From contig CAYSKO010000002.1 in NCBI GenBank assembly GCA_964431835.1, positions 22,802-86,801 on the forward strand: a stretch of 64,000 bases of DNA, written 5' to 3'. How positions within the stretch are numbered: the stretch's first letter is position 1; every line of letters starts with the position of its first letter. The DNA is from an uncultured Planctomycetia bacterium (GTDB lineage: Bacteria; Omnitrophota; Gorgyraeia; 2-02-FULL-51-18). The position numbers were made by a program, and so were the translations under genes. The notes under the pieces were generated by a model that saw only the letters and a program-made list of their open reading frames with translations, ran no database searches and was not told the DNA's origin. Shown piece by piece: positions 6,147-47,382 of this stretch.

Positions 6147-7703
6147 GTGGGCGCTCAAGGGGTAGGGCTTTACTTCGACGCCAAGCGCGTCTATCTGGTC
6201 GAGCTCCGCAAGGAGTTCGGCGAAATCCATATTTCCCGTTCCGCCGAGATCGACGTCCCGCCTCCGGCATCCGGAATGCTCCATGAATTCGGCCCCGAGA
6301 CCTGGGAAGCCATCCGCCAGGCGTTCGACCGCACGAAGATCCAGTCGCGCAGTATCGCAATCGCGCTCCCCGAGCGCGAGATCATGGTCCGCTACTTCGA
6401 CATGCCGCTTTTGCCGAAAAAAGAACAGACGGCGGCGATCCGTTTCGAATCCCAAAAATACCTCCCGTTCGACGTCCGCGATCTTTACTCCGACTACGAA
6501 CTTTTTCCCGACAAACGCCACAAACGCATGGGTGTCGCTTTCCTGGCCTCGCGGAAGAAGATCGTCGACGACGTCGCGCACAATCTCGAGCAGATGGGTG
6601 TCCGCATCGCGGCGGTCGAGACCGTATCGGTCGCGCTCATCCGCACACTTCCTCCGGCGGCCGTAAAAACCGAGGTCCAGGCGCTCGTGTCGATCGACCG
6701 GGACGGCGCGCTCACGACCGTCGTCTTCCGCGGCAAGTCGATTCTCATGTCGCGCTCGAGCGCTCCGCGTCCCGCGCCGCTCGGCGTCGCCGCGACCGCG
6801 CCCTCGGAAGAGGTCGTCGCGGAAATCCGCCTGGCGTTCAATTATTTCTCCAAAAGCTTCAAGGGTGAGCCGATCAAACGGATGCTCGTGAGCGTGGATC
6901 CGGGCGAGGAGCTGATCGGCTGGGAGGAGCTGCTTCAACGCGAATTCGGGCTACCCGTTTCGACGATCAACGCCATCCATACGCTCGGCCGCACGAAGAC
7001 CGTTTCCCCGGGTATGGCCGTCGCCATCGGCGCGGCGCTCCGCTGGGTGATGCGCGATGCGAAGGTGAACCTGCTTCCGCACACGACCGCCAAGCGGGTC
7101 GAGAGCCAGTCGCTTTCCCCGGAAGAGGAGAAGGAAGTCCTGCAGAAATGGGCCATCCGCTTCGCGATCGCGGGCCTGGTGGCGCTGGTGGCTCTGCATT
7201 TCGCGCTGGGCGCGCAGCTCGACGACCGCAAGAAGAAGCTCGACGCGGCCCGCCGCTCCCCGGCGCGCGCGGCCACCGCCAACGCGGGCATGTCGCCCGA
7301 TCAGTTGAAACAGCGCGAAGCCGCGATCAATAAGAAGCTGGTTTTCCTTTCGAATGTCTTCGAAAAGCGCGTTCTGGTCACCTCTAAACTCGTCGAGGCG
7401 GCGCGCGCGCTGCCCGAGGAAGTCCGCCTCTCCTCGCTGGATTATTCGGATCCCGGAGACAGGGAAGGCAAGTCATTCCCGACCATGAAACTCGAGGGGA
7501 TGATCTCGCTCAGCAATTCCGGGAGCGAGCTCGCACTGGCGAACCGGTTCGTCACGGCGCTCAAGGAAAACGAGGCCTTCACGCGCGGATTCGCGGACGT
7601 CAAGCTGACGGCGGTCCGCAAGAGCGTTCCGGCTCAGGACCAAGTCGCCGCGCGGCCCGGTTATGTGAGCGTCGACTGCGTGCCCGTGGAGGTGCGTGGC
7701 TGA
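6147..7703 (+). CDS. pilM: Type IV pilus assembly protein: PilM (actin-like ATPase fold) fused to PilN (TM plus periplasmic domain)
   Basis: N-terminal 350 aa are PilM-like. A TM helix (WAIRFAIAGLVALVALHFALGAQL) follows, then a PilN-like periplasmic region. TGATG overlap with pilO. Confidence 0.75.
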   Translation: MGAQGVGLYFDAKRVYLVELRKEFGEIHISRSAEIDVPPPASGMLHEFGPETWEAIRQAFDRTKIQSRSIAIALPEREIMVRYFDMPLLPKKEQTAAIRFESQKYLPFDVRDLYSDYELFPDKRHKRMGVAFLASRKKIVDDVAHNLEQMGVRIAAVETVSVALIRTLPPAAVKTEVQALVSIDRDGALTTVVFRGKSILMSRSSAPRPAPLGVAATAPSEEVVAEIRLAFNYFSKSFKGEPIKRMLVSVDPGEELIGWEELLQREFGLPVSTINAIHTLGRTKTVSPGMAVAIGAALRWVMRDAKVNLLPHTTAKRVESQSLSPEEEKEVLQKWAIRFAIAGLVALVALHFALGAQLDDRKKKLDAARRSPARAATANAGMSPDQLKQREAAINKKLVFLSNVFEKRVLVTSKLVEAARALPEEVRLSSLDYSDPGDREGKSFPTMKLEGMISLSNSGSELALANRFVTALKENEAFTRGFADVKLTAVRKSVPAQDQVAARPGYVSVDCVPVEVRG

Positions 7704-8233
7704 TGGCCATCGAATTCAGAAACACCAAAGAGAAGCTGATCGCGCTGGGAGCGATCGTCACGCTCGTGACGGCGTTCATTGGTTGGAATTTCGTCGCCCG
7801 TCCGAAATCCGCGACGGCCAAGAAGCTCGAGGTCTCGCGCCGCGGAGACATCGAGAAGACGGATATCGTCCGCCGCATCGCCGAAGGGGAGACGAAGTTC
7901 GAATCCTACAGGGCTCGCCTAGCCGAGAAGCGCGAGTCGAGCTGGTTCATCGAAACGCTCAACGAGATCGCCGATCGCGCGGAGATCAACCTCTCTCTCG
8001 TGACGCCGCTTCCGCGCGTCGCCGGCGAAAGCTTCGAGCGTATTCCGCTGCGCATCGAGATGACGTGTCCCTATGGAAAACTCGGGGCGTTTCTTGAGGC
8101 AGTCGAGAACCACACGCCGACCATCCGCGTCGAATCGCTCCGGATCGAAGGCTCAGGCGACCCGTTGAAGACGGCCGACGAATTACGCGTCTCCTTGACG
8201 CTCGCGGTTCTGCGCCCGTCGGAGCCGCTTTGA
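7703..8233 (+). CDS. pilO: Type IV pilus assembly protein PilO
   Basis: N-terminal TM plus coiled coil and a PilO-like C-terminal domain. Positioned between pilMN and pilP/pilQ. Confidence 0.65.
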   Translation: MAIEFRNTKEKLIALGAIVTLVTAFIGWNFVARPKSATAKKLEVSRRGDIEKTDIVRRIAEGETKFESYRARLAEKRESSWFIETLNEIADRAEINLSLVTPLPRVAGESFERIPLRIEMTCPYGKLGAFLEAVENHTPTIRVESLRIEGSGDPLKTADELRVSLTLAVLRPSEPL

Positions 8234-8634
8234 TGCGCCGCGCCTTTTCGATCGCCGCAGCGCTTATCGCGCTCGCTTCCGTCTCCTTCGCGGCGGAAGC
8301 CCCAAAACCCCACGCCGCCCAAAAACCCGACGCCGCCAAAGTCGCCGCGCCGAAAGTCGAGGCCGTGACCGCGTCCTTCGACCGGGCGGTGAGAGACCCA
8401 TTCAATTTTTCAGGAGCTGGGCCGGTCCAAAAGACCGACAAGCCGAAACAGACGGGCTACACGCTCGAAGGGATCGTTTGGATGTCCGACCGTCCGCAGG
8501 CGATCGTGAACGGAAAGATCGTCGAGCGCGGCTCGAAGCTCGACAACGCGGAAATTTTGGATATCGATGAAAAAGGTGTTAAAATGCGCGTAGACGGCAA
8601 AGAGCTTCTTCTTAAGCCTAGGGGACAAAATTAA
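8230..8634 (+). CDS. PilP-like periplasmic pilus assembly protein (secreted, 134 aa)
   Basis: Signal peptide, Pro/Ala/Lys-rich linker and a beta-rich C-terminal domain. Lies immediately upstream of the secretin gene, as pilP does. Confidence 0.5.
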   Translation: MMRRAFSIAAALIALASVSFAAEAPKPHAAQKPDAAKVAAPKVEAVTASFDRAVRDPFNFSGAGPVQKTDKPKQTGYTLEGIVWMSDRPQAIVNGKIVERGSKLDNAEILDIDEKGVKMRVDGKELLLKPRGQN

Positions 8635-10374
8635 ATGCGTAATTTGAGGAAGTTTATAAACGTTTTTTTAATCGTTTTCTCAACCGTCGCGAACCCTTGC
8701 GCGATCCTCGCGGAAGAATTGGAAGAAGCGGAGGGCGAGGCCGACGTCGCGACGGCGGTGCGCGGCGAAGACAATCTCGTTTCGATGAACTTTGACGGTG
8801 CGCAGCTACGCGACGTGCTGAAGATTCTTTCCCAGCAGTCCGGCCTTAATTTCGTGGCGAGCGAAGACGTCGAATCGAAGAAGGTGACGGTTCTCTTGGA
8901 GGACGTTCCTGTCGGCGACGCACTTGAGAGCATCGTGCGCGCGAATTCCCTCCGCTACGAACGAAAGCCCGGCTCCAACGTCTTTGAGGTCTCCGCCGCG
9001 GAAGACACCTCGGGCGGCGTCCAGACGCGCGTCTTCATGCTCCGCTACACGCGTCTTTCGATTTCTCCTCTGGACGTGGGCGGTCAGAGCGCGATTAATG
9101 ATCTCCTCAAACCCGAAGAAGTCAGTGCCATCACGGCATCAGCCGGAGGCGCGGGCGCGGCAGCGGGCGCCGGAGCGGCGGGCGCCGAGTCGACCGGCAC
9201 GGAACTTGCGCTGGTCGCCGAACGCGGCGTCGATAAGATCGTCGCGACGCTCCTTTCCGAGACCGGAAAAGTCACGGTCGACATCCACACCAACAGCTTG
9301 ATCGTCACGGACGCCCCAGCCGTCCTCACAAAGATCGAGAAAGTACTCGAGAAGATCGACGTACCCACGCGTCAGGTCATGATCGAGTGCCACTTGATCG
9401 AGGTCTCAAAGACGGTGCTCGATGACCACGGCGTCGATTGGGGCGGCGCGAACGGCGCGCTCCTGGCGTTCGAGGGCGCCGACCGCTCGACTGCGTTTCC
9501 TTTCGCGGAGAGCATTTTCACGAACAGCTCCGAGCTTCGCGCCGCAACCCGGCCGAAGTCTGCGATCACGATGGGAACGGTCAGCGCAGAAAACTTCAGC
9601 GCAACGCTCCGCTTCATCACGAGCCAGTCCGATTCGAAAATCCTCGCGCGTCCGCGCGTGCTCACCCTGAACAACGAAGCCGCCAATATCCGTCTCGTCA
9701 CGAGCGCGGCGATCGCGCGCACCTCGACCATCACGGCGTCCGAAGGCATTACGACGCTCCAGACGGGCCAAGCCTCGCGGACAGACGTCGGCATCAGCCT
9801 GCGCATGACTCCCCAGGTGAACGAAAACCGCACGATCACGCTCTTCGTCGAGCCCTCTGTGACGACGGTCGCGGCGTCGACGTTCTTCCCGTCGGATTTC
9901 CTCGACCCCACCACCCGGTCGGTGCGGACGATGGCTCGCGTAAAGGACCATGAAACGCTCGTGATCGGCGGCCTCATCGACCGCAACCATTCACTTACCG
10001 ACAAACGGATCCCGGGACTCGGAAGCATTCCGTTCTTCGGCAACGCGTTCGCCTACAAAGAGCGCGGCAAGGCCGACCGCGAGCTGATCATCTTTATCAC
10101 GCCCCACATCGTGGAAGGGTACGACAGTCTGGCCGCGCAGAGCGCGACCGCGCCGGGCCGCGACACGGCGGTACGCCGCACCCTCGATTACTTCGTGAAA
10201 GAAGAAATGGAGCTCGCCACGGACCCGCTCGAGGACGCTGGTGCGGCACGCTTTCCGATCGACCGCCAGGAAAAGGCGATGCTCAAGCAGAGCGCCAAGC
10301 GCCCGGTCGCACCCTCCCTCGAGAAGGAAATGAGCCGCGCGCTCGATTCGCTCAGCCAAAAGAACGCGAAGTAA
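8635..10374 (+). CDS. pilQ: Type IV pilus secretin PilQ
   Basis: Secretin C-domain signature (TLVIGGLIDRNHSLTDKRIPGLGSIPFFGNAFAYKERGKADRELIIFITPHIV), N-terminal secretin/STN-like domains and a Gly/Ala-rich linker. Confidence 0.85.
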   Translation: MRNLRKFINVFLIVFSTVANPCAILAEELEEAEGEADVATAVRGEDNLVSMNFDGAQLRDVLKILSQQSGLNFVASEDVESKKVTVLLEDVPVGDALESIVRANSLRYERKPGSNVFEVSAAEDTSGGVQTRVFMLRYTRLSISPLDVGGQSAINDLLKPEEVSAITASAGGAGAAAGAGAAGAESTGTELALVAERGVDKIVATLLSETGKVTVDIHTNSLIVTDAPAVLTKIEKVLEKIDVPTRQVMIECHLIEVSKTVLDDHGVDWGGANGALLAFEGADRSTAFPFAESIFTNSSELRAATRPKSAITMGTVSAENFSATLRFITSQSDSKILARPRVLTLNNEAANIRLVTSAAIARTSTITASEGITTLQTGQASRTDVGISLRMTPQVNENRTITLFVEPSVTTVAASTFFPSDFLDPTTRSVRTMARVKDHETLVIGGLIDRNHSLTDKRIPGLGSIPFFGNAFAYKERGKADRELIIFITPHIVEGYDSLAAQSATAPGRDTAVRRTLDYFVKEEMELATDPLEDAGAARFPIDRQEKAMLKQSAKRPVAPSLEKEMSRALDSLSQKNAK

Positions 10375-10376
10375 CC

Positions 10377-12089
10377 TTGGGTAAACCCCACGTTCGGCTC
10401 GGCGAACTGCTGATCAAAGAGGGGAAAGTCACCCTCGCCGACATCGAACGCGCGATCGAGCTCCAAAAAAAAGACGAAACCTTCCTTGGCACCATCCTCG
10501 TCAAGCTCGGGGCGATCAGCGACGAGGATCTCGCGATCGCGCTCTCGAAGCAGCTCGGCGTCGCTTACGTTTCACGCGCGAACGGCCTCTTGATCCCCAT
10601 GCTCGATCAGGAGCTCAACAAACTCGTTCCCGAGGATTTCGCCCGCCGCCATTCCGTGCTGCCGATCCAGCTCGCCGGAGATACGCTCCGCGTGGCCATG
10701 ATCGACCCGACCGACATCGTCCTTCTCGACAACCTGAACCGCATCACGGCCCGATCGATCGACCGCGTGATCGCCACGAAGAAGGAGATCGACGCCGCGA
10801 TCGGCCAGTTCTACGGCGAAGGCGGCATGCTGAAAACCGCCATCGAAGCCTCCTTTCAGGCGAAGGAGCTGATCGGCGAAAGGGAGGACTTCGACTCTCA
10901 AATCTCGCTCGACGACCTCGTCGCCAGCGCCGAGAAGGCGCCGGTCATCAAGCTCACGGACCTCATCATCCGCCAGGCAATCAAAGAACGCGCCTCGGAT
11001 ATCCATCTCGAGCCGTTCGCGAACAAGATCGCGATCCGCTTCCGCATCGACGGCGTCCTGCGCGAAATATCGCCGCCGGACAAGTCGATGATGCTGCCGC
11101 TCATCTCGCGCGTGAAGATTCTCGCGAAGATGGACATCGCCGAGAAGCGTCTTCCCCAAGACGGGAGCTTCCGTGCCACGATCGAGAACCGCGCGATCGA
11201 TTTCCGCGTGTCGACGATCCCGACCGTGCACGGCGAGAAGATGGTTCTTCGTATCCTGGACCGCTCGTCCCTCAGTCTCACGCTGGACGGCCTGGGTTTC
11301 TCGCCGGACGAGAGCGCCATGTTCCGCAAAGCGATCAACCGGCCCTACGGTATGATTCTCCTGACGGGCCCGACCGGAAGCGGCAAAACGACCACCCTTT
11401 ATTCGGCTCTCAACGAACTGAAGAGCGGCGAAAAGAACATCGTCACCATCGAAGATCCGGTGGAGTACCAGATCCAGGGCATCAACCAGGTCCAGGTGAA
11501 GTCGTCGATCGGGCTCACGTTCGCGAGCGGCCTCCGCGCGTTCCTGCGTCAGGATCCGGACATCATGCTCGTCGGCGAAACCCGCGATCTCGAGACCGCG
11601 CAGATCTGCGTGCGCGCGGCGCTCACGGGCCACCTGGTTTTCACGACCCTTCACACCAACGACGCCCCGACGGCCATCAACCGCCTTATCGATTTGGGTA
11701 TTGAGCCATTTTTCGTCACGTCGTCCCTGCTTCTCACGGTCGCGCAGCGTCTGGTCCGGCGCCTTTGCCCGAAATGCAAAGAGCCGGTCGCCGCGGCCGA
11801 ATCCGGGCTTCCTTCGCCGTTTAAGGACGAAGCGAAGACCGTGTTCACGGCCCGGGGTTGCGACGCCTGCGCCAACACCGGCTACCTCGGCCGAATCCCG
11901 ATTTTCGAGATGATGTCCATGAGCGAGAAAATCGAGACGCTCGCTCTTCGAAACGCCGGCATGGCCGAGATCCGCGAGGCCGCGCGCGCCGCAGGAATGG
12001 TGACTCTCGAAGAAAGCGGCTACAGAAAAGTGCTTCGCGGCGACACCTCGCTCGAGGAAATTCTCCGCATGACGATGAGCGGTGGCTAA
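10377..12089 (+). CDS. pilB: Type IV pilus assembly ATPase PilB (GspE family), TTG start
   Basis: N-terminal T2SSE_N domain, Walker A GPTGSGKTTT, Asp and His boxes, and the tetracysteine motif CPKC...CDAC. Confidence 0.9.
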   Translation: MGKPHVRLGELLIKEGKVTLADIERAIELQKKDETFLGTILVKLGAISDEDLAIALSKQLGVAYVSRANGLLIPMLDQELNKLVPEDFARRHSVLPIQLAGDTLRVAMIDPTDIVLLDNLNRITARSIDRVIATKKEIDAAIGQFYGEGGMLKTAIEASFQAKELIGEREDFDSQISLDDLVASAEKAPVIKLTDLIIRQAIKERASDIHLEPFANKIAIRFRIDGVLREISPPDKSMMLPLISRVKILAKMDIAEKRLPQDGSFRATIENRAIDFRVSTIPTVHGEKMVLRILDRSSLSLTLDGLGFSPDESAMFRKAINRPYGMILLTGPTGSGKTTTLYSALNELKSGEKNIVTIEDPVEYQIQGINQVQVKSSIGLTFASGLRAFLRQDPDIMLVGETRDLETAQICVRAALTGHLVFTTLHTNDAPTAINRLIDLGIEPFFVTSSLLLTVAQRLVRRLCPKCKEPVAAAESGLPSPFKDEAKTVFTARGCDACANTGYLGRIPIFEMMSMSEKIETLALRNAGMAEIREAARAAGMVTLEESGYRKVLRGDTSLEEILRMTMSGG

Positions 12090-12092
12090 AGA

Positions 12093-13304
12093 GTGGCGAC
12101 TTACAGTTATACCGCGCGCGATTCGCGCGGCGGCCAGCTGACGGGCTTTCAGGAAGCCACGAACGAGTCCGAGGCGGTGAAGATCCTCCAGACGCGGGGA
12201 CTCACCATCACGAAAATCGGCCAGCCATCCGACGCTCATTCGACGGGCCGCAAAAAACGCCTCCGCAAACGCATCAAACAGGAAGATTACCTCGTTTTTA
12301 CGCGCGAGACCGCGACGCTTCTCGAAGCAGGCATCCCGCTCCTTCGCACGCTCGAGGTCATCGCCGAACAGGTCGAAAGCGCGAAACTCAGGACAACGGT
12401 CATCCAGATGATCACGGACATCAAAGCCGGGTCGACGTTCAAAGACGCGGTCGCGCACCACCCTAAAATATTCCCGGGTCTCTGGGTCCATCTACTCGAA
12501 GCGGGCGAGCTCTCGGGAAATCTCACGCTCGTCCTCAGCCAGATCGCGGAGCATCTCGAGACGAGCATCGGCATGAAGAAGAAGCTCGTGTCGGCGCTCG
12601 CGTATCCCGCGGTCCTCATCTGTGTCGCAGTCGGCGCCATATTCGTGTTCCTCCTCAAGATCATCCCGGTGTTCGACGATCTTTTCAAGAGCATGAACGC
12701 GCAGCTGCCTTTTCTGACGCAGGTAGTCATCAATCTCAGTCACGCGCTGCAGAAATATTTCGTCTGGTTCATCGTCGCCGTGGCCGTGGCTTCGTGGCTT
12801 TTCAAGCGCTGGATCGCCACGCCGACGGGCCGCCGAGCGATGGACGCGCTTCTTCTGCGCCTGCCGGTTTTCGGGAACCTCATGCGCGACGTGATCGTGG
12901 CGCGCATCACGGTCAATCTGGCGACGCTCGTGCGAAGCGGGGTGAACATCATCCAGTCGGTGGATATCACCTCCAAGGCCGCCGGCAATGCGCTCTACCG
13001 TGAAGCGCTGGAGCGCACGAAAAATGACCTTCAGCAGGGGAAGGCGATGTCGTCCTCGATGGCGGAGAGTCCGCTCTTCGCGCCGATCGTCGTCCACATG
13101 GTGATGATCGGAGAGGAGAGCGGAAAGCTCTCCGACATGCTCGGAAAACTCGCCGATTACTATGAGGACCGGGTCGAGGTTTTTCTCGGCCGGCTCGGTG
13201 TCCTCATTGAGCCCTTGATTCTAGTCGTGATTGGCGGGGTGATCGCTTTTCTCGTTATCGCAATGTTCTTACCGATACTCAGTCTCAGTCAAATCGTTAA
13301 ATGA
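12093..13304 (+). CDS. pilC: Type IV pilus inner-membrane platform protein PilC (GspF family), GTG start
   Basis: Two GspF repeats and three TM segments. Immediately downstream of pilB. Confidence 0.9.
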   Translation: MATYSYTARDSRGGQLTGFQEATNESEAVKILQTRGLTITKIGQPSDAHSTGRKKRLRKRIKQEDYLVFTRETATLLEAGIPLLRTLEVIAEQVESAKLRTTVIQMITDIKAGSTFKDAVAHHPKIFPGLWVHLLEAGELSGNLTLVLSQIAEHLETSIGMKKKLVSALAYPAVLICVAVGAIFVFLLKIIPVFDDLFKSMNAQLPFLTQVVINLSHALQKYFVWFIVAVAVASWLFKRWIATPTGRRAMDALLLRLPVFGNLMRDVIVARITVNLATLVRSGVNIIQSVDITSKAAGNALYREALERTKNDLQQGKAMSSSMAESPLFAPIVVHMVMIGEESGKLSDMLGKLADYYEDRVEVFLGRLGVLIEPLILVVIGGVIAFLVIAMFLPILSLSQIVK

Positions 13305-13333
13305 AGGCGTCGAAACCGATTAAAGAGTTAAAT

Positions 13334-13360
13334 AAAACCTTTAATAACTGTTGCGCCAAC
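13334..13360. repeat. Copy A of a conserved AT-rich intergenic motif (AACCTTTAATAA-CTGTTGC), about 85 nt upstream of the major pilin start
   Basis: A 12-mer AACCTTTAATAA followed by CTGTTGC is repeated almost exactly at 19127-19147, in a genome of about 63% GC. Confidence 0.5.
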
Positions 13361-13440
13361 TCCGCTGGAGTGATATACTAACAAGTAGAAAGAATAACCA
13401 ATACTAAGTTTTGTTGGGGTGTACATAAAGGGGGAAAGTT

Positions 13441-13851
13441 ATGATTAACCTGCTCGGATCCAAGCGCTTGGGCAACCAAAAAGGCTTCACGCTGCTTGAA
13501 ATCCTGATCGTCATCATCATCCTCGGCATTCTCGCCGCGTTGGCCATTCCGGTGTATTCGGCCGTCCGCGAAAAAGCCGTGAAACAAGAAGGTTACCAGC
13601 AGTTGGCGGCGACGCGTGAAGCGCAGCAGCGTTACTTTGCGGCCTACAACGCGTACACCAACGATACGGGTCTGCTCGAATACGACCCGAACGCCGTAGC
13701 GGCGGGCGTGTCCAAGCACTACGACTACACGTTCCCTGCGGCGTCGGCGACGGCGTTCACGGTTCGTGCGACGCGTAATTCGACGGCGCCTACGCCGCCG
13801 GCCGCGTACTACCTCGAAGTCAACGAGGCGGGAACGATCACGGAAGTCTAA
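13441..13851 (+). CDS. pilA: Type IV major pilin (prepilin with class III signal peptide)
   Basis: Leader ending ...NQKG followed by FTLLEILIVIIILGILAALAIPVY (G-1, F+1, E+5). Strong SD GGGGGA, own AT-rich upstream region and a rho-independent terminator downstream. Confidence 0.8.
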   Translation: MINLLGSKRLGNQKGFTLLEILIVIIILGILAALAIPVYSAVREKAVKQEGYQQLAATREAQQRYFAAYNAYTNDTGLLEYDPNAVAAGVSKHYDYTFPAASATAFTVRATRNSTAPTPPAAYYLEVNEAGTITEV

Positions 13852-13857
13852 AGAAAC

Positions 13858-13903
13858 CGGAAAGCCAAGCGGTCCTTACAGGCCGCTTGGCTTTTCTTTT
13901 TTG
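13858..13903 (+). terminator. Rho-independent terminator after the major pilin gene
   Basis: Perfect hairpin aaagccaagcgg...ccgcttggcttt followed by tcttttttg. Confidence 0.65.
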
Positions 13904-13915
13904 AGGGCCCGAAGC

Positions 13916-14326
13916 GTGCGAAACAGTCAAGATGGAATGACTTTGACGGAGATCACGATCGTCTCCGTGATCCTCGTGATGATGGCGGGCCTGGCGATTC
14001 CCAGTTATTTCAAAACCGTCGAGGAATCCCGCTCGAGCGAAGCGAAGGCGAATTTGAGCACGCTCCATTTCGCGCAGAAAATCTTTCGCGAGAGCAACTC
14101 GGCGAAGAAATTTTATCCCGTCGGCGGCGGGACGAAGACCACGACCTCCGACCTCACCGAAATCACGACCCAGCTGAACGTCGATATTTCCCCGAATTTT
14201 TATAATATCGAGATCGAAACCGCCGGTGGCGGAAGCACCACCGACTACACAGCGACCGCCACTCGCTCGAACGACTCGACCCGCAGATACCGAGTAGACG
14301 AATCCGGCGTCGTCATCAAGCTCTAA
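13916..14326 (+). CDS. Minor (pseudo)pilin with prepilin-type N-terminus, GTG start
   Basis: Short leader MRNSQDG then MTLTEITIVSVILVMMAGLAIPSYF (Gly-1, Glu+5). First gene of a seven-gene overlapping operon. Confidence 0.65.
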   Translation: MRNSQDGMTLTEITIVSVILVMMAGLAIPSYFKTVEESRSSEAKANLSTLHFAQKIFRESNSAKKFYPVGGGTKTTTSDLTEITTQLNVDISPNFYNIEIETAGGGSTTDYTATATRSNDSTRRYRVDESGVVIKL

Positions 14327-14336
14327 GGGAGCCGTT

Positions 14337-15473
14337 ATGAGGAAAGTCCCAGCTGTTCCGAAAGCGCCGATCCTGGCGCTTTTTATGCTTTCCGCGGTGT
14401 CCGCGGCCCTCGCGACGGACGTGGATAAATCCACGGAATATCCCGTGCCGTCCGGCATCTACGACGGGATCACTGTTTCTCGCTACCTCCGCATGGGAAT
14501 TCCCACGGCCGCGGTTCCCGACGTGGACGCCCACACCCCGAACGCCGGCACGGCAAATCCGGCGACCGCCTCCCAGGCGGCCCTGACCATCAACGGCAAC
14601 GTTTATATCCATCCGCTCGATCTCAATCTCACGGACGCGCAGCCGCCGGTCCCTTACGTGCCCCTGGATACCGACGGCGGCGCCGGAGCCACAGTACCGC
14701 TTCGCGACGTGGTCATCGACGAGAAGCTGACGGTGGACGGCACGACGTTCCGCGTCGTTCCGCTCAATTGGTGGGGCAATAGCCACTGGACTGCCGTGAA
14801 TGTCCCCGGTGCCGTCACTGGTGACAGCCGCGGCAGCGAATTCCAGGTCAACGGTGACATTCACGCCTACGCGTATCGCGCTTCCCAGAGGTATCCCGAT
14901 CAAAACGACACGCGCGTCCATTTCGGGCCAACGAAGGTAAGCGGTGTCTCGTGGCTCGACATGCGGGCCAAGACAGGCATGATCGACGCCAATCAGTGGG
15001 CGCACGGCATGAGCACGCTTTATTTCCGTGCCGATCCGATGCTCGTTTTGAACGGCTACTCGCGAGCCAACGTCGGTATCGGCACGACGAATCCCACTTA
15101 TCTTCTGCAGGTGGGCGATCCGGGCTCCGGCCTGCAGGCGATCGCGCATTCATGGGACATTTATAGCTCGCGCGCCTACAAAACCGACATCCGCCCTTTT
15201 TCGCCCGCCGATTACAGATTGGCCGCCGACAGAGTGGGGGATCTGAACCTCGTTCGTTTCCGTTACAAAGAGGACAAGCCAGGCGACAAGAAAATACTCG
15301 GATTCATCGCCGAGGAAGCTCCAAATGAAATTCTCTCACCGGACGGCAAAGCCGTGAGCCTCGGGGACACGCTGGGTTTCCTGCTGGCGGCCATCAAAGG
15401 CCTCAAAGCCGAAAACGACGCGCTCCGGACCGAGATCGAGCGGCTCGAAACCGCCGGGGGGAGGCTTTTGTGA
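14337..15473 (+). CDS. Secreted tail-fibre-like protein with C-terminal peptidase S74 intramolecular-chaperone domain (paralogue 1 of 3)
   Basis: Sec signal peptide. Tail-fibre motif ANVGIGTTNPTYLLQV, then the S74 Ser/Lys dyad context SWDIYSSRAYKTDI, LGFIAEEAPNEILSPDG and a C-terminal coiled coil LKAENDALRTEIERLE. 4-nt overlap with the next gene. Confidence 0.75.
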   Translation: MRKVPAVPKAPILALFMLSAVSAALATDVDKSTEYPVPSGIYDGITVSRYLRMGIPTAAVPDVDAHTPNAGTANPATASQAALTINGNVYIHPLDLNLTDAQPPVPYVPLDTDGGAGATVPLRDVVIDEKLTVDGTTFRVVPLNWWGNSHWTAVNVPGAVTGDSRGSEFQVNGDIHAYAYRASQRYPDQNDTRVHFGPTKVSGVSWLDMRAKTGMIDANQWAHGMSTLYFRADPMLVLNGYSRANVGIGTTNPTYLLQVGDPGSGLQAIAHSWDIYSSRAYKTDIRPFSPADYRLAADRVGDLNLVRFRYKEDKPGDKKILGFIAEEAPNEILSPDGKAVSLGDTLGFLLAAIKGLKAENDALRTEIERLETAGGRLL

Positions 15474-16591
15474 GGCGGCTCGCTTTCATCCTCCTCTTGG
15501 GTTTCGCACTGACGCAGGACGCGCGCGCGGCCGAAATCGACGTTACCACGTATTACGACGCCCCTTTCGGCGATTACAAAGAATTCCGGCTCTCCGGCAC
15601 TCTCGCCGCAGGGCTCGTCGACGCCGATCCGGGTCCTCTTTTGATCGGCGCCGGAAGCTACACGGCCGCTTTCTTCGGCGGCTTCAACGTGTGGAACAAT
15701 GACATTCCCGGGCACCTCGGGGCGAGCCGCGGCGGAGGGCTCACGGTCACGGGAAATCTCGACATTCAGGACGCCCTCGGGATCTCGCTTCTTTACGTGA
15801 ACGCGACGACCGACCGCGTCGGCATCGGGACGCGGGCGCCCGCAGCGGCGCTCGACGTGCGCGGCGAAGCCAAGGCGATCAACCTCTTCGCGTATGCGTC
15901 TCCGCTCGACCCGACCCAGCCGTACGCGGAAATGAACACCGAGGTCACGCCAGAGCGCTTCGGGGCGGGCTACTGGTGGAACCAGACGTTCCCGCATAGA
16001 TACCGTTTCTGCACGATGCACATCGACGGCGATCCGATCGCGATCCAATCGATCGACAAGAGTGCGATGGGGCTGGGAGGCTTGGGCCGAGGCCAGCTCA
16101 TCATAAACGGCATGCCCGTCGGCTACGTCACGTACGACGCGAAAGTGATTCTCGTTGTGGGAGAACCCCAGCAGAACCAAGTCCTCGACCCCGATCCCGA
16201 CGAGGCTACCGGTGACGGAGACGGGGATCCGAATCAGGGCGACTATCCCGTGGCGCTGCCGAAGCCGCAGGCCTTCGCCCATCAGTGGTATCAGTTCAGT
16301 TCCCGCGAGTACAAAAAGGACATCGTGCCTTTGATGCCCGCGGAGTATGGCACGATTCTCTCTTCGCTTGCGGTGATGGATGTCGTTCGCTACCGTTTCC
16401 ATTCGGAAAGCGGCACGACGAAACCGCACGTCGGGTTGATCGCCGAAGACGTGCCCGAGGACATGGCGCAGTCCGACCGCAAATCCATCGGACTAGGCGA
16501 GCAGGCCGCGTTTCTCCTGGCGTCCGCTAAAGCGCTCAGGGGCGAACAGGACGACATGCGCGCCCGCGTCGAAAGGCTGAAAAAATCATGA
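15470..16591 (+). CDS. Secreted tail-fibre-like protein with C-terminal peptidase S74 intramolecular-chaperone domain (paralogue 2 of 3)
   Basis: Signal peptide; DRVGIGTRAPAAALDV; QWYQFSSREYKKDIVP; VGLIAEDVPEDM; LRGEQDDMRARVERL. 4-nt overlaps on both sides. Confidence 0.75.
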   Translation: MRRLAFILLLGFALTQDARAAEIDVTTYYDAPFGDYKEFRLSGTLAAGLVDADPGPLLIGAGSYTAAFFGGFNVWNNDIPGHLGASRGGGLTVTGNLDIQDALGISLLYVNATTDRVGIGTRAPAAALDVRGEAKAINLFAYASPLDPTQPYAEMNTEVTPERFGAGYWWNQTFPHRYRFCTMHIDGDPIAIQSIDKSAMGLGGLGRGQLIINGMPVGYVTYDAKVILVVGEPQQNQVLDPDPDEATGDGDGDPNQGDYPVALPKPQAFAHQWYQFSSREYKKDIVPLMPAEYGTILSSLAVMDVVRYRFHSESGTTKPHVGLIAEDVPEDMAQSDRKSIGLGEQAAFLLASAKALRGEQDDMRARVERLKKS

Positions 16592-17754
16592 ACGCGCGCT
16601 TTTTCGCAACGATCGCTCTTGCCGCATTCATCGCAGCGCCTTTGCCGGCGCTGGCGGACGACGTGACGGTTCGAACGACCTATCCGAACCGCTTCGGCGA
16701 ACACACGAACGCCGACACCGAAAGCTCTCTAACGGTGGGGTCTCTCACGCAGGGCGCCTCGACGAACGTCTTCGGGGACGTCTCGATCGTGGGCGATCTC
16801 GTCATCACGAAGCCGACGAACGGCCTCGTACGCATCGCCCCCTCGCACGGCCCTTACCAGGAAGACGGCCTGCGCGTGCACCCCAACGGAAGCATTTCGA
16901 TCGGCAGCAACGTCGTCCTGCCGGCCGCGAATCCGCCCAAACTAAAGTCCCATACGACGCTGAAGGGCCGCCGACTTTACGCGTACGGCGATCCCGCGGA
17001 CACACACACGGTGTACGGGCTCATGCAGGGGTATCTCGATACTTCAGCAAGTTCCTATCATCTCCAGCGCAAAGCGCTCTTCGCGTCGCGTCCTGTCGCC
17101 GGCGGCAACATCATCGATCCCGCCGCCGGAACGTACGGGCCTCTCCGCATCGACGGCAGAGAAGTGCAAATGGGCCCACAGTACGATCCGAACGTACCGA
17201 CGGGACGTGGAAACCCCTCCGATCCTTGGTTTACAGGAATGCTCGAGCGGGTCATCATCGGCACGAACGAGATGTGGCTCGATCCGGTCGATACGCCGGA
17301 ACCTGAGATTTTCCTTCAGGTGGGCCATCCGACCGATCCCGACCCCACCGATCCCGAGCGCATCCCCGGCATAAACGGTGCTCCAGACGAGCCGCCGCAG
17401 CCGACCGGCGGCGCGGCGAGTAACTGGCGGGTTTTCAGCTCGCGTGAGTATAAGAAGGACATCGTGCCGTTCGACGCCGCCGCGCAGGCGGGCGCGCTCG
17501 AGGCGATCTCCCGGCTCGACGTGGTCCGCTACCGCTTTAAGAGCGAGCCCGTGAACGCCAAGCCGCATACCGGCGTGATCGCGGAGGACCTCCCCGCCGC
17601 CATCCGCTCGGCGAGCGGCAAAGGCCTGGACCTTGGCCAGGCGTATTCCTACGCCGCGGCGGCGCTCAAAGCGCTGAAGACCGAGAACGACGTGCTCAAG
17701 ACCCGTCTCGAAAAGCTCGAAGCGGAAGCGGCGGCCCGAAAGGCGCGGCCGTGA
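16588..17754 (+). CDS. Secreted tail-fibre-like protein with C-terminal peptidase S74 intramolecular-chaperone domain (paralogue 3 of 3)
   Basis: Signal peptide; NWRVFSSREYKKDIVPF; TGVIAEDLPAAI; LKALKTENDVLKTRLEKLE. The C-terminus is closely related to paralogue 2. Confidence 0.75.
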   Translation: MNARFFATIALAAFIAAPLPALADDVTVRTTYPNRFGEHTNADTESSLTVGSLTQGASTNVFGDVSIVGDLVITKPTNGLVRIAPSHGPYQEDGLRVHPNGSISIGSNVVLPAANPPKLKSHTTLKGRRLYAYGDPADTHTVYGLMQGYLDTSASSYHLQRKALFASRPVAGGNIIDPAAGTYGPLRIDGREVQMGPQYDPNVPTGRGNPSDPWFTGMLERVIIGTNEMWLDPVDTPEPEIFLQVGHPTDPDPTDPERIPGINGAPDEPPQPTGGAASNWRVFSSREYKKDIVPFDAAAQAGALEAISRLDVVRYRFKSEPVNAKPHTGVIAEDLPAAIRSASGKGLDLGQAYSYAAAALKALKTENDVLKTRLEKLEAEAAARKARP

Positions 17755-18101
17755 AACTCTCCTCGGCGCGTGGTCTTACGCTCGTCGAGATCGTGATATC
17801 CGCTCTTCTTATTTCGACCGTCATGGCGCTTCTTTTGAACGCGTTCGTAAACGCCAGTAAATGGATTTCTCCCGAGAACAACATCGCTCACGGCCTCGCG
17901 CGCGAGAAATTGGAGAATCTTCTGGAAGAGGTCCGCCAGGACCGTTGGGACGACGCGGCTCGGCGCCTGCATCCCGATTACGATCCGCCGTCCGAAGCTC
18001 TCACGTTGAACGCCGTCGCCTACACGCGCGACTACGACGTGGAGGCTGTGACCGGGAGGCCCTACCGCAAAGCGAAGGTGACCGTCCAATGGCCTTCTTA
18101 A
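17751..18101 (+). CDS. Minor (pseudo)pilin, prepilin-type N-terminus
   Basis: MKLSSARG then LTLVEIVISALLISTVMALLL (Gly-1, Glu+5). Confidence 0.65.
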   Translation: MKLSSARGLTLVEIVISALLISTVMALLLNAFVNASKWISPENNIAHGLAREKLENLLEEVRQDRWDDAARRLHPDYDPPSEALTLNAVAYTRDYDVEAVTGRPYRKAKVTVQWPS

Positions 18102-18733
18102 AATCTTCCCGCGGCGTCACGCTGGTGGAAATCGTCATCGCGGTTCTCCTCATCTCGGTGATCTTCCTCGGGTCGACGACGGTCTACGTGACCGCACTCA
18201 AATTCTTCAACGCTGTCCGCGACAAGTCGCCGCAGGTTTACGGCTTTCTCGCCGCCGAGACGGTCGTCCGGAAAGTCGCGGTCGCGAGTGAGGCTATCGT
18301 GAACGACTCGGGCTCCTCGAACGGCGCGTCGACCTTGGACGCGGATGGCCTGAACTACGTGACCGGTAAACAGATCAAGATCCGCTGGGATTTCACCCTC
18401 GCTGATTGGACGCCGCTCAACACGCCTTCCAACACCGCGGACGATACGTGGGTGAAATACAAGATCATCGAGAATCCCGGCGGTTCCGGGACCTACCGAC
18501 TTTACACGCGCAAGGACGCGAGCGTCACGGCCGACGTCACGACCGCTGACGAAGAAGTGGACACGCTTCTCACGCTAGGAGCCAATTCCGTGTTCCGCCT
18601 TTCAAGCCCGAGCGGCAACGCCGAAGGTGCGGCGACCACGGTGGATGTGCATCTGGAAACCGTCGGAGGCAGCTCGTCCCAGACGGTCGTGATCCATACC
18701 GACACCGCCGTGGGCGGGGGCGCCAAAAGATGA
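18089..18733 (+). CDS. Minor (pseudo)pilin, prepilin-type N-terminus
   Basis: MAFLKSSRG then VTLVEIVIAVLLISVIFLG. Start is placed at the internal ATG of the longer ORF-track call (17861), to avoid a long overlap and to give a canonical leader. Confidence 0.65.
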   Translation: MAFLKSSRGVTLVEIVIAVLLISVIFLGSTTVYVTALKFFNAVRDKSPQVYGFLAAETVVRKVAVASEAIVNDSGSSNGASTLDADGLNYVTGKQIKIRWDFTLADWTPLNTPSNTADDTWVKYKIIENPGGSGTYRLYTRKDASVTADVTTADEEVDTLLTLGANSVFRLSSPSGNAEGAATTVDVHLETVGGSSSQTVVIHTDTAVGGGAKR

Positions 18734-19125
18734 AACCGAGACCCTCGAGCGATTCCGGGCTCGTCCTCACGATCGTCGTAATCACGATCCTCATGATGCT
18801 CGGGCTTGTGGCCGCCGTCCTCAGCCTGGCGGCGAACCAGCGCCTCCTTTCCGACGAATTGAGCTCCCGGCACGTGCGCGCCTATTACCGGGCGAGGGGA
18901 GGGGTTGTGGAGGCTCGCTGGCGCATCCGGAACGACCAGACTGCGGACATCGGGGGAGGCGGGACGTTCACGAACGCCGCCTATAATCCGGCCCCTTACT
19001 TCATCGATCTCGACGCGAACGCCGTCCACACCGCACGAACGGACGACGACGACGTGCGCGTGGACATCGGCGCGTTGGATGCAGCGACGGGCGTGCGCCC
19101 GGTCGAGGTTACGGGCTTCGAATAA
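18730..19125 (+). CDS. PilX-N-terminal-domain-like minor pilus protein
   Basis: GLVLTIVVITILMMLGLVAAVLSLAANQRLLSDE resembles the PilX_N hydrophobic segment. Last gene of the overlapping operon. Confidence 0.45.
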   Translation: MKPRPSSDSGLVLTIVVITILMMLGLVAAVLSLAANQRLLSDELSSRHVRAYYRARGGVVEARWRIRNDQTADIGGGGTFTNAAYNPAPYFIDLDANAVHTARTDDDDVRVDIGALDAATGVRPVEVTGFE

Positions 19126-19153
19126 TAACCTTTAATAAACCTGTTGCAAACCA
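19125..19153. repeat. Copy B of the conserved AT-rich motif (AACCTTTAATAAACCTGTTGC), immediately after the minor-pilin operon
   Basis: Same 12-mer plus CTGTTGC as at 13336-13354. Confidence 0.5.
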
Positions 19154-19219
19154 CATGGATTTCCTTTACTTTAATCGCATGCTCGCCCGCCTAAGCACCT
19201 CGCCGGAACGGAAGGACTC

Positions 19220-20011
19220 TTGAGCAAACGGACATGGGCCGTCTTTCTCGCGGCCACCACATTCCTCATCACCGGATTCACCATCTTCCTCCTTTATAAC
19301 AGCCGGGAGGCCGAGAAGAAGATCCGCGTCCAGAAGGAGGTCGAGCTTTCCAAGAAGATGGTGGAGCTCACCGAGAAGCAGGGGCAGATATCCACTCTCC
19401 TCAAGCAGAAGCTCGATCTCGAAGAACAGTTCCACGTCAAGATCGCCTCGCTCGAGACGACCATCAAGGATTATGAGGAAAACTCCAAGGCCGCTGCGGC
19501 GCGTATGGAGGCGGTGCTCGAGGAGAACGAAACCCTGAAGCGCGACTTATCCGCGCGGGACAAGAAGATGTCCGACCTGACCCGCCGCATGCGCACTCTT
19601 GAATCCGACAAAACGGACCTTCTCGAATCCCTTTCCAAGAAGGCCACCGCGAAGGCCACCGAGAACGCTTCCTCAGCCGTCCCTGCCGGAGACGAGCGTC
19701 CCGCCGTGACGGGCGATTTCGGCGCGCCCGAGGTGAACCCGGTGAAGCTCGGCAAGATCGTGGTTCAGAAATCGTCCGGCCGCGCGGCGCGGGTCGAACA
19801 CATTGACAAACTTTACGGATTCATCGTCATCAACGCCGGCGCGAAGGACGGTCTTCGTGCGAATTCGGTCGTGAACATCGTCCGCGGGAACAAGCTCATC
19901 GGCAAGGCGGTCGTTCAAAAGGTACGCCCCGACATCTCGGCCGCGACGGTGATGTCCGAATGGACGCGCGACGAGATCAAAGTCGGCGACATGGTTAGCC
20001 GGTTTTCCTAA
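19220..20011 (+). CDS. Membrane-anchored coiled-coil protein with a C-terminal beta-rich domain (hypothetical)
   Basis: N-terminal TM, about 130 aa of heptad-rich coiled coil, and a C-terminal domain KLGKIVVQK...VVNIVRGNKLIGKAVVQKV. Confidence 0.45.
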   Translation: MSKRTWAVFLAATTFLITGFTIFLLYNSREAEKKIRVQKEVELSKKMVELTEKQGQISTLLKQKLDLEEQFHVKIASLETTIKDYEENSKAAAARMEAVLEENETLKRDLSARDKKMSDLTRRMRTLESDKTDLLESLSKKATAKATENASSAVPAGDERPAVTGDFGAPEVNPVKLGKIVVQKSSGRAARVEHIDKLYGFIVINAGAKDGLRANSVVNIVRGNKLIGKAVVQKVRPDISAATVMSEWTRDEIKVGDMVSRFS

Positions 20012-20065
20012 AGTCCGGGGCCGCCTCCCTTGTCCGGCGCCCTTTTTCGTGGTTTACTTCTTAAG

Positions 20066-20776
20066 ATGAAACTTCCCCCCTTAGCCTCCGCGCTCGCGGC
20101 CGTCACTACTCTTGTTTGCGTCTCCATGCCCGCTTTCGCGGACGTCGTCCGCCTCAAGAACGGGCGAGACCTTTCCGGAACCGTTTCCAAGGCCAACGAC
20201 GGCACGCTCGCGCTTGCGATCGCCGGCGGCGTCGTAAAGCTCGATCCGGAAGACGTCGAATGGACGGTCCGCGGCACGGACGAGGAAATTGAGGGCAAAC
20301 GCCGCGCGGCCTCTCAGTACGAGCGCGCCGAGCTGGCACGCGAAGCGGGGAATTGGGTCGTGGCAGCCGAAGCGTACGAGCGTGCCGCCGAACTCACGGC
20401 GAGCGCCGATCTTTTGAACAACGCAGGCACGGCCTGGGCACAGGCGGGGAACATCGACCGCGCCGTGCCGCAATTTCGCCGGGCCCTTTCCGAGAATCCT
20501 TCCCATGCGGCCGCGCGGCGCAATCTCGCAGCGGCTCTCCGCGAACGCGGCGCGGCGTCCTACGCCAAAGGCGAATTCGAAGCCGCGCTCCTTTTGTGGC
20601 GCGAGGCGTTGAGGCTTTCCGGCGGCGGCGCCGATCTTCTGAACGACTTGGGCTCTTCGCATGGCATGCTCGGCAACCGTGCGGCCGCCGAGCGCTTCTA
20701 CAAGAAGGCGCTCCGCGTCGCGGCGGGCCACGGGACGGCCTCGCGGAATCTGCGTACGCTGGCGGGGAACGCGTGA
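20066..20776 (+). CDS. Secreted TPR-repeat protein
   Basis: Signal peptide MKLPPLASALAAVTTLVCVSMPAFA; TPR-like Ala-rich helical repeats. GTGA overlap with the next gene. The ORF-track start at 20030 is an alternative. Confidence 0.55.
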   Translation: MKLPPLASALAAVTTLVCVSMPAFADVVRLKNGRDLSGTVSKANDGTLALAIAGGVVKLDPEDVEWTVRGTDEEIEGKRRAASQYERAELAREAGNWVVAAEAYERAAELTASADLLNNAGTAWAQAGNIDRAVPQFRRALSENPSHAAARRNLAAALRERGAASYAKGEFEAALLLWREALRLSGGGADLLNDLGSSHGMLGNRAAAERFYKKALRVAAGHGTASRNLRTLAGNA

Positions 20777-27362: not shown

Positions 27363-27374
27363 GGGACAGACGCC

Positions 27375-29278: not shown

Positions 29279-29279
29279 C

Positions 29280-42521: not shown

Positions 42522-42522
42522 T

Positions 42523-43176: not shown

Positions 43177-43227
43177 TCCACCGGAGTTCCGCCGTTTGAA
43201 CCGCCCACATCCCCAGGAGATCGCGCG

Positions 43228-43428
43228 ATGAGAGGTATCGTGAAGTGGTTTTCGAACCAGAAGGGCTACGGCTTCATCACTCCCGACGGCGGCGGAAAAG
43301 ACGTGTTCGTCCACCACGGCTCCATCCAGGAAGACGGCTACAAAACCCTCGACGAGGGCCAGGCGGTGGAGTTCGACGTCACGCCGGGACCCAAAGGGGA
43401 GCAGGCGGCGGCCGTCCGTAAGGTTTAA
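43228..43428 (+). CDS. cspA: Cold-shock protein (CspA family)
   Basis: [12 protein letters not shown] (RNP1) and VFVHH (RNP2) motifs. Confidence 0.9.
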
Positions 43429-43533
43429 CCCTTTTCCTAAAGCCCTGCAAAGGCCCGTTTGAGGGCTTTTGCGGGGCTTTTTCGTGCCCGGCGCGACTCT
43501 CTTCCTGTCCTTCCAATTCCATGGGGGCTTCCC

Positions 43534-47375: not shown

Positions 47376-47382
47376 GGTTTTA

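Follow-up and report, generated by a model that had tools for sequence, protein, structure and literature searches.

Type IV pili are tipped by a minor-pilin complex and, in certain systems, by PilY1 (cited part of 10.1101/2023.07.22.550172). Two other kinds of exported proteins are close to the genes described here. The mosaic adhesive trimer (MAT) fibres of Bdellovibrio bacteriovorus, a subgroup of S74 proteins, are described in the cited sections of PMC10769870 as proteins of ~1,000 amino acids (aa), in which a signal peptide is followed by a conserved beta-rich N-terminal domain of ~130 aa, a trimeric beta-helix with capping loops of the form V-G-G/N-pi-x-x-P-x-x-x-L, and S74. The surface partner of the N-terminal domain is left open in these sections, and the authors only raise a possible interplay with type IV pili (PMC10769870). 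TcpF of Vibrio cholerae binds the pilus tip as a trimer, and the growing filament carries it out (PMC9565799). TcpF and CofJ of enterotoxigenic Escherichia coli (ETEC) are Sec-exported proteins encoded in the pilus operon, and an N-terminal aromatic peptide docks them on the minor pilins of the tip (PMC9565799, PMC6048534, PMC10120004). Here, a locus of seven genes (positions 13916-19125, plus strand) is described from a 64,000-nucleotide (nt) stretch of DNA of an uncultured Planctomycetia bacterium (GCA_964431835.1, contig CAYSKO010000002.1, positions 22,802-86,801 of the forward strand). This whole stretch is designated as the window, and all positions refer to it. The locus belongs to a type IV filament system in which a conserved, hitherto undescribed module would serve as tip or cargo. 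The filament would stand between type IVa pili and type II secretion, with three fibre proteins containing a Peptidase_S74 domain (types A, B, and C) in the place of PilY1. With a probability of about 0.55, these fibres are exported through, and associated with, the tip complex of this filament.

The seven genes constitute a compact, translationally coupled block downstream of the genes for the assembly machine and the major pilin (Table 1). Five of the six junctions overlap, by 4, 4, 4, 13, and 4 nt. An earlier note on this DNA had described overlaps of 4-13 nt throughout, which is right except for the first junction (14326/14337), a 10-nt gap which includes GGGAG.

Eleven further loci were compared (L003, L004, L013-L015, and L093-L098). 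L003 contains a 51%-identical relative in the order pilin, pilin, three S74 genes, pilin, pilin; L004, from a genome labelled Candidatus Eisenbacteria, contains a 35%-identical relative in the same arrangement. L013-L015 originate from a metagenome scan with a 9-sequence alignment, a 28-sequence alignment being too divergent for a contig scan. L093-L098 are the loci of six family members picked from an exhaustive hidden Markov model (HMM) search, the most divergent included. Wherever the sequence suffices, the layout is common to all of them: machine, one or more pilins, pilin, three S74 genes, pilin, pilin, pilin. The full order in L013-L015 is PilM-type protein, PilO-type protein, small protein, secretin, ATPase, platform protein, two pilins, A, B, C, three pilins, and a coiled-coil protein. 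Compared with those of the window, the S74 proteins in L003, L004, and L013-L015 have identities of 30-54%. L093-L098 have GC contents of 48-61% and flanking genes that differ from locus to locus. All six family members looked up from the HMM search sit in this locus type.

The typing HMMs for A, B, and C were built from the window, L003, and L004 only, and the nine other loci were typed independently. Exactly one A, one B, and one C were found in each of the nine, and this composition is kept in L095 and L097 despite their B-A-C order. The trio had been regarded as mere cargo of the pilin operon, a view with which this regularity does not agree. The comparison of the loci shows that the S74 trio is the invariant signature of the system, not an incidental insert. 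The exhaustive HMM search covered 1.84 billion representative proteins; word-indexed homologue searches gave 2-3 proteins each. It revealed 95 proteins at E <= 1e-30. Of these, at least 34 are full-length (334-420 aa) and share the signal peptide and the N-terminal motif. In the best 150 of the 1.84 billion representatives, the types A, B, and C occur as 34:26:24. A scan of a genome collection with a narrow pattern returned one full-length relative only, in Candidatus Eisenbacteria. Full-text searches of the literature returned no report on S74 or tail-fibre proteins built into a pilin or secretin operon.

The exact motif YSSREYKTDITYLEE is common to long single S74 proteins from Patescibacteria/Saccharibacteria (L005-L012). 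Pilin genes are lacking next to them, apart from one prepilin at a distance of 9 kb in L010, and they were set aside for this reason. They are a separate S74 family in episymbiotic bacteria.

The three fibre proteins of the window show a mutual identity of only 28-33% but are built on one plan. Their signal peptides (AALA↓TDV in type A, ARA↓AEI in type B, and ALA↓DDV in type C) are directly followed by an element of ~25 residues common to all three types, T-x-Y-P-x-P-x-G-x-Y...L-T-V-G. It starts with STEYPVPSGIY in type A, TTYYDAPFGDY in type B, which further contains RVGIGTRAPAAALDV, and TTYPNRFGEH in type C. The middle part is beta-rich in each of the three, and loops of the form VGIGTxxPxxxL are seen in A and B. 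All three proteins contain the dyad motif SSRxYK(K/T)DI (YSSRAYKTDI in type A, FSSREYKKDI in types B and C) and a C-terminal S74 chaperone and coiled coil, and all exceed the Pfam gathering score of 22 bits for Peptidase_S74 (PF13884). The SSR..K columns are invariant in 28 family members, and in divergent loci the dyad is kept as Ser/Cys-x4-Lys while its surroundings vary. These features predict that A, B, and C are exported by Sec, trimerise, and cleave themselves.

A profile of nine family members matched the MyRF ICA domain in the PDB. The AlphaFold2 monomer model of type B, based on a 70-sequence alignment, has a mean predicted local distance difference test (pLDDT) score of 73, with 73-94 at residues 90-190 and >90 in the S74 domain. 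The best PDB matches of this model with Foldseek are Bd2133 and Bd3182 from Bdellovibrio (probability 0.99, E about 1e-3), with an E-value of 1.3e-3 and a template modelling (TM) score of 0.15 for Bd2133. The MyRF ICA domain is matched with a probability of 0.99 and the K1F chaperone more weakly (~0.2), and the best viral structure matches are S74 fibre proteins and endosialidases. The trio resembles the K1F endosialidase, T5 pb1, and the MyRF ICA domain in its Peptidase_S74 domain above threshold, its Ser-Lys dyad, and its fold (matches to 3GW6 and 7DC3). Unlike phage tail fibres and tailspikes with such a C-terminal intramolecular chaperone, these proteins have Sec signal peptides, and their genes lie in a pilus operon on the chromosome.

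Phage fibres typically show this Peptidase_S74 domain and this kind of fold, as would be expected if the trio were a prophage tail-fibre remnant in the pilin operon with no role in the pilus. However, no phage genes are found nearby, the signal peptides are of the Sec type, and synteny and one-to-one orthology are kept down to ~30% identity. Type B showed no tblastn match in 50,697 GenBank phage records, and the IMG/VR contigs matched residues 266-381 only, which correspond to the S74 domain. In these searches the S74 domain alone appears to have viral relatives, the first ~265 residues having none. A prophage remnant is hardly credible, being effectively refuted by the conserved synteny.

The similarity to the MAT fibres is closer. 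Both are bacterial proteins in which a Sec signal peptide is followed by a conserved N-terminal element, a beta-helical fibre (putative in the trio) with related loops of the VG.G..P...L type, and a C-terminal S74 chaperone-protease with the S-x4-K dyad. The trio proteins are distinguished by their length of 340-410 aa, by the motif of ~25 residues, and by the loop VGIGTxxPxxxL, which is one residue longer than the published consensus. They are not classified as MAT fibres because they are about one-third as long and lack the 130-aa N-terminal domain. Their link to pilins is built into the operon, and none is mentioned for MAT fibres in the cited sections of PMC10769870. Since these closest structural relatives are, as described there, Sec-exported surface fibres with an N-terminal anchoring domain, the S74 proteins might also be surface fibres which are anchored in the outer membrane or envelope independently of the filament and only co-regulated with the pilus, so that both are produced at once. 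Co-regulation alone, however, needs no insertion between pilin genes with 4-nt overlaps, and it leaves the conserved position of the trio across all recovered loci unexplained. The A/B/C family was not seen outside this locus type, and on sequence inspection the three proteins contain no lipobox, beta-barrel, or other anchor. An anchor independent of the filament is therefore quite improbable.

The pilins around the trio were recognized by a short leader with Gly as its last residue, by a hydrophobic amino acid at +1 and Glu at +5, and by a hydrophobic helix of ~20 residues. A regular expression for such prepilins, applied to the six-frame translation of the 64 kb, found five sites only, all on the plus strand between 13.4 and 20.8 kb; this confinement to one strand and one region shows that the clustering is not due to chance. 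The features of class III signal peptides are present in the proteins starting at 13441, 13916, 17751, and 18089. The N-termini G↓MTLTE, G↓LTLVE, and G↓VTLVE, which the earlier note had read at the last three positions, are indeed there. The same note counted four prepilins plus a PilX_N-like protein encoded by the last gene. Prepilins and a differing last protein were found as such, but as three canonical prepilins and one protein without Glu5, and the resemblance to PilX_N was not borne out: the 18730 protein has no match at E <= 0.1 in Pfam, PilX_N included, or NCBIfam, and no PDB profile match at E <= 10. The last gene also lacks Glu5 in the orthologues (G↓MVMTV, G↓IVLTV, G↓VALTL, and G↓AALTL in a five-locus alignment).

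The 13916 pilin and the major pilin are paralogues, with 40% identity over 52 residues. In L003, L004, and L013-L015, the gene immediately ahead of the trio is an orthologue of the 13916 gene, and in L094-L098 a pilin-like gene occupies this place. The 17751 pilin has 29 invariant columns in a six-locus alignment, the motif VRQDxW among them. The major pilin matches the NCBIfam prepilin domain with 34 bits, and among the four Glu5 pilins the N_methyl cut-off is reached only by the 13441 and 18089 proteins. When the profiles of the 17751 and 18089 pilins were compared with the PDB, only their N-terminal helices matched (geopilin, PilA, MshA). None of the pilins reached the threshold of a GspG/H/I/J/K, PilV, or PilX family in Pfam or NCBIfam. 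From the number, the sizes (136, 116, 214, and 131 aa), the order, and the missing Glu5 of the last one, tentative labels can be given: the 13916 pilin may be "H-like" by position, the 17751 and 18089 pilins "I-like" and "J-like" by size and position, and the 18730 protein "K/PilX-like" by the missing Glu5 and its place as the last gene.

The public gene calls (L001/L002) start at 13937 and 17823, downstream of the GTG codons at 13916 and 17751. The former call removes the class III leader and the latter the whole N-terminal helix, and these two pilin genes therefore have no N_methyl annotation in the public records. The GTG starts chosen in the earlier note are better than the public calls, because the orthologues carry ATG-initiated leaders at the matching positions; GAGGG is found 8 nt upstream of the GTG at 13916. 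Automatic calls which strip the leader help to explain why such operons stay unannotated.

In composition and order, these genes resemble those of the priming and tip complex of type IVa pili, FimU-PilV-PilW-PilX-PilY1, and of the homologous pseudopilus tip of type II secretion, GspH-I-J-K: the operon follows the major pilin gene and encodes three Glu5 pilins and a pilin-like protein without Glu5. As in FimU-PilV-PilW-PilX-PilY1, a Sec-exported non-pilin is encoded among the minor pilins, and a secretin, an ATPase, and a platform protein are encoded alongside. The pilins here differ from FimU/PilV/PilW/PilX and GspH-K in remaining under all family thresholds. In contrast to the PilY1 systems, there is no large beta-propeller protein, and three S74 paralogues of ~370 aa are found instead. 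If the tip adhesin PilY1 is defined as a Sec-exported protein of at least ~1,000 aa which has a C-terminal beta-propeller and whose gene lies between those of minor pilins, none of the seven genes qualifies, in agreement with the earlier note, and none was found in Pfam scans of the larger open reading frames (ORFs) of the window or in the flanks of the related loci. The sole ORF of PilY1-like size in the window (946 aa) encodes a multi-haem cytochrome c.

The assembly machine is encoded upstream, at 6147-13304. The match to PilM in the 6147-7703 protein is limited to about the first 200 residues, and its NCBIfam scores for pilM (69 bits) and for the Amuc_1101 PilM-like family (52.9 bits) are both under the cut-off; it may be a fusion of the PilM-PilN or GspL-like kind. 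This gene is kept at the head of the cluster in L013-L015, L094, L095, and L098. The 7703-8233 protein is closest to GspM (NCBIfam GspM_XpsM 53.2 bits, cut-off 60). The small exported protein at 8233-8634 matches no family among the NCBIfam models and may be PilP-like by its position, which its orthologues also occupy in L013-L015. The ATPase is slightly under the cut-offs of both NCBIfam PilB (622.9 bits, cut-off 675.65) and GspE (593.4 bits, cut-off 630.25), and its N-terminal MshEN motif for binding of cyclic di-GMP (c-di-GMP) reaches 50.1 bits (NCBIfam cut-off 38). At 43521-44027 on the plus strand, 30 kb downstream of this ATPase, a stand-alone PilZ-domain protein is encoded. The pair of MshEN ATPase and PilZ protein hints at control of the filament by c-di-GMP.

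From the type IVa pilus set, M-, O-, Q-, B-, and C-like parts are present, with a probable P-like part; from the type II secretion set, D-, E-, F-, and M-like parts are present, with a probable L-like part, while the pseudopilin family models remain under their cut-offs. GspC and GspO were not found in the window with Pfam or NCBIfam. Judged by these family matches, the machine lies between type IVa pili and type II secretion. The seven genes had been assigned to the minor-pilin complex of a pilMNOPQ-pilBC machine; the composition is that expected for such a complex, with three Glu5 pilins and one without Glu5, but the machine is not a canonical pilMNOPQ. The same reading had noted that pilD and pilT are missing from the 64 kb, and this holds: no Peptidase_A24 (pilD) was found in Pfam scans of the larger ORFs of the window, and the T2SSE-type Walker A motif has a single match in the window, so that the 10377-12089 protein is the sole T2SSE-family ATPase there and no pilT was found. 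The records for the 10-kb flanks of L094, L095, and L098 list neither a Peptidase_A24 protein nor a second T2SSE-family ATPase. Both genes may sit elsewhere in the genome, and their absence here says little on processing or retraction.

With such a machine, a dedicated type II secretion system has to be considered, in which a short periplasmic pseudopilus would release three S74 trimers to the medium or the cell surface, for example as fibres that bind or degrade glycans, with no lasting attachment to a filament. The GspM-type match of the 176-aa protein, the GspL-like length of the PilM-type protein, and the score of the ATPase near the GspE cut-off point in this direction. So does the gene order, major pilin, pilin, ..., pilin, pilin, pilin without Glu5, which mirrors gspG-H-I-J-K, as well as the lack of a retraction ATPase in the window and in the records for the flanks of L094, L095, and L098. 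The substrates of type II secretion systems are often encoded within or beside the operon. S74 domains are known on phage depolymerase spikes (Pfam description; cited sections of PMC10769870). On the other hand, GspC was not found and the models of GspG/H/I/J/K are all under the cut-off. Mature proteins of ~250 residues would probably be too short for the known beta-helix depolymerases. The rule of one A, one B, and one C and the insertion between pilin genes, not at an end of the operon, resemble structural subunits, not interchangeable cargo. Finally, two to four pilin-like genes precede the trio in L004 (14-1427), L094 (6208-7066), and L098 (8137-10001), which is unusual for a pseudopilus and favours an exposed filament. 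Three of those in L004 are near-identical paralogues of the major pilin, which suggests pilin variation in an exposed filament. Release by type II secretion is considered unlikely, if still a serious alternative.

For the favoured reading, export of the fibres through the filament system and their association with its tip, TcpF and CofJ are the nearest mechanistic precedent by analogy. Like these proteins, which dock on TcpB and CofB, the trio is Sec-exported and encoded in the pilus operon. There is no relation in sequence or fold; the trio consists of putatively self-cleaving, phage-type fibres in three paralogues, and the tip is expected to contain four small, different pilins instead of the homotrimer of one large minor pilin formed by TcpB or CofB. 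The fibres, which carry signal peptides, would first be exported by Sec. In the periplasm, each would fold into a phage-type beta-helical trimer by means of the S74 chaperone, as the similarity in domain and fold suggests, and the chaperone would cut itself off at the Ser/Cys-x4-Lys dyad seen in the sequences. The mature fibres of ~250 residues may then dock by the N-terminal aromatic motif on the initiation complex of four pilins, in analogy with TcpF/CofJ on TcpB/CofB. Driven by the c-di-GMP-type ATPase, the major pilin would polymerise, and this would push the complex and its load through the secretin. At the surface, the fibres would constitute a distal adhesin or receptor-binding tip of the filament, substituting for PilY1 in function, or be released; the evidence fits both. 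A folded periplasmic trimer needs a route across the outer membrane, and the secretin machine encoded alongside thus supports the export.

Several points weigh against this reading. The interaction of fibres and pilins is deduced from sequence features and from analogy. The I/J/K labels have no detectable homology behind them and depend on protein size, gene order, and the lack of Glu5. In the type B model, the N-terminal region has a pLDDT of 50-60 and gives no structural support to the docking role of the motif, and a first AlphaFold2 model (type C, 5-sequence alignment) was discarded with a pLDDT of 33. Neither pilT nor pilD was seen in the window or the related loci. The S74 proteins could equally be classical type II substrates or use another route to the surface.

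The conservation of one of each type, together with the translational coupling, favours a complex of fixed stoichiometry. A single apparatus can be imagined, either an A-B-C heterotrimeric fibre or three homotrimers, one per tip pilin, docked on a three-part minor-pilin tip; this extension is rather doubtful. Full-length paralogues within one locus differ by up to ~65 residues (L094, L095, and L098), which argues mildly against a heterotrimer strictly in register. If the apparatus exists, the cell would grapple specific partners, prey, or polymers with phage-style receptor-binding fibres on an extendable filament; it would represent the first case of a phage-type fibre at the tip of a pilus, and possibly also of a heteromeric S74 fibre, and it would suggest how Sec-exported S74 fibres such as the MAT proteins cross the outer membrane and anchor on it. 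If the fibres ride on the tip, they represent a new solution for pilus adhesion, a clear case of a cellular filament recruiting phage receptor-binding architecture, and a concrete, testable route of export and anchoring for bacterial S74 fibres, a matter which the authors on MAT fibres leave open (PMC10769870). The trio also offers a compact candidate docking motif and a set of partners for the recognition of folded periplasmic cargo by type IV machines.

The major pilin gene had been described as a separate transcription unit with its own leader and terminator. Its leader is AT-rich and a terminator-like hairpin with a T-tract follows the gene, as described. The separateness, however, is doubtful: only 13 nt lie between the T-tract and the GTG at 13916, which leaves no room for a promoter there, and it is no less likely that transcription reads through an attenuating terminator. 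The hairpin at 13859-13902 probably reduces the transcription that passes from the major pilin gene into the operon downstream. The seven-gene block would be most simply expressed by partial read-through, which would give a high ratio of pilin to tip proteins.

The promoter-like element at 13351-13379 was not listed by a consensus scanner. At the corresponding position of the orthologous loci, TTGATA/TTGAAT, a spacer of 17 nt, and TGGTATAGT/AAT are observed, and sigma-70-type hexamers are clearer in the related loci at both promoter places. A motif of 19-21 nt, AACCTTTAATAA(N0-2)CTGTTGC, has exactly two copies in the 64 kb, with 0 expected. It is not kept as such in the related loci, and its interpretation as a regulator site was dropped for this reason. 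It overlaps the -35-like hexamers and is thus read as promoter sequence. A search of 13000-20200 against Rfam returned only a sub-threshold match to CRISPR-DR29 (19081-19116, E 0.086), which was taken as chance.

Table 1. Positions of the genes and sequence elements of the filament locus in the window.
Feature	Position	Strand	Length	Characteristics
PilM-type assembly protein	6147..7703	+	518 aa	Pfam PilM_2 E 1.1e-11
PilO/GspM-like inner-membrane assembly protein	7703..8233	+	176 aa	Pfam T2SSM_b E 1.2e-11, PilO E 3e-9
Small exported protein	8233..8634	+	133 aa	Signal peptide, RDPF motif; gene called in public record
Outer-membrane secretin, short	8635..10374	+		Pfam Secretin E 2.8e-38, Secretin_N E 3.9e-9
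Assembly ATPase, PilB/GspE type	10377..12089	+		Pfam T2SSE E 1.2e-138, MshEN E 2.4e-20
Platform protein PilC/GspF	12093..13304	+		Pfam T2SSF_N and T2SSF recorded for identical gene in L001
Motif AACCTTTAATAA(N0-2)CTGTTGC, copy upstream of major pilin	13336-13354	+		
Promoter-like element (putative)	13351..13379	+		TTGCGC, 17 nt, TG-n-TATACT; read from the sequence
Major pilin	13441..13851	+	136 aa	G↓FTLLE, no cysteines; Pfam N_methyl 34.5 bits, ComP_DUS 28.2 bits
Terminator-like hairpin	13859..13902	+		16 pairs (9 G-C) and T6
Second pilin	13916..14326	+	136 aa	GTG start, MRNSQDG↓MTLTEITIV; N_methyl E 0.0044, ComP_DUS 26.5 bits
S74 fibre type A	14337..15473	+	378 aa	Pfam Peptidase_S74 35.0 bits; type-A HMM
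S74 fibre type B	15470..16591	+	373 aa	Pfam Peptidase_S74 28.3 bits
S74 fibre type C	16588..17754	+	388 aa	Pfam Peptidase_S74 42.9 bits; type-C HMM
Minor pilin	17751..18101	+	116 aa	GTG start, MKLSSARG↓LTLVEIVI; N_methyl E 0.011
Minor pilin	18089..18733	+	214 aa	ATG start, MAFLKSSRG↓VTLVEIVI; N_methyl E 0.0002, 21.2 bits, equal to the cut-off
Pilin-like protein without Glu5	18730..19125	+	131 aa	MKPRPSSDSG↓LVLTIVVITILMML; G↓LVLTI, Ile at +5
Motif AACCTTTAATAA(N0-2)CTGTTGC, copy upstream of coiled-coil gene	19127-19147	+		
Promoter-like element	19144..19172	+		TTGCAA, 17 nt, TACTTT; ahead of the 19220 gene
Conserved neighbour	19220..20011	+	263 aa	Membrane anchor, coiled coil, C-terminal beta-rich domain; weak MreC-barrel match E 0.0097

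The gene at 19220-20011 follows the seven-gene block. In L004 and L013-L015, the last pilin gene is immediately followed by its orthologues (43-59% identity); in L093, L094, and L098, this position is taken by a gene whose product has a similar N-terminus. The 263-aa protein appears to be a conserved, so far uncharacterised partner of this system.

Further downstream, 20773-21942 (plus strand) encodes a modular pilin of 389 aa, in which a linker rich in Gly and Ser joins the prepilin N-terminus KRARG↓FTLVEILIAV to a C-terminal domain containing an HExxH motif (VHEGTHLQQY). It shows a weak match to Pfam DUF6782, "putative metallopeptidase" (E 0.013), and has a counterpart with 53% identity in L015, between a tetratricopeptide repeat (TPR) protein and a 210-aa protein. 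This pilin may display a protease-like module.

Some other genes of the window are also recorded. The gene at 2287-3363 (plus strand) encodes a ParA/MinD-type P-loop ATPase (AAA_31, E 1.7e-50) fused to a C-terminal CBM48/AMPK1_CBM domain (E 1.7e-13), and this combination of a P-loop ATPase and a glycogen-binding module is unusual. Four ORFs (376, 407, 388, and 680 aa) on the minus strand at 42472-43602 and 46242-50588 have no Pfam match at E <= 1e-4, and three of them are consecutive. A respiratory cluster on the plus strand at 26775-32120 consists of a Rieske protein, a split cytochrome b, and the 946-aa multi-haem cytochrome c mentioned above, and is followed by genes for haem A/O synthesis at 33016-34766.

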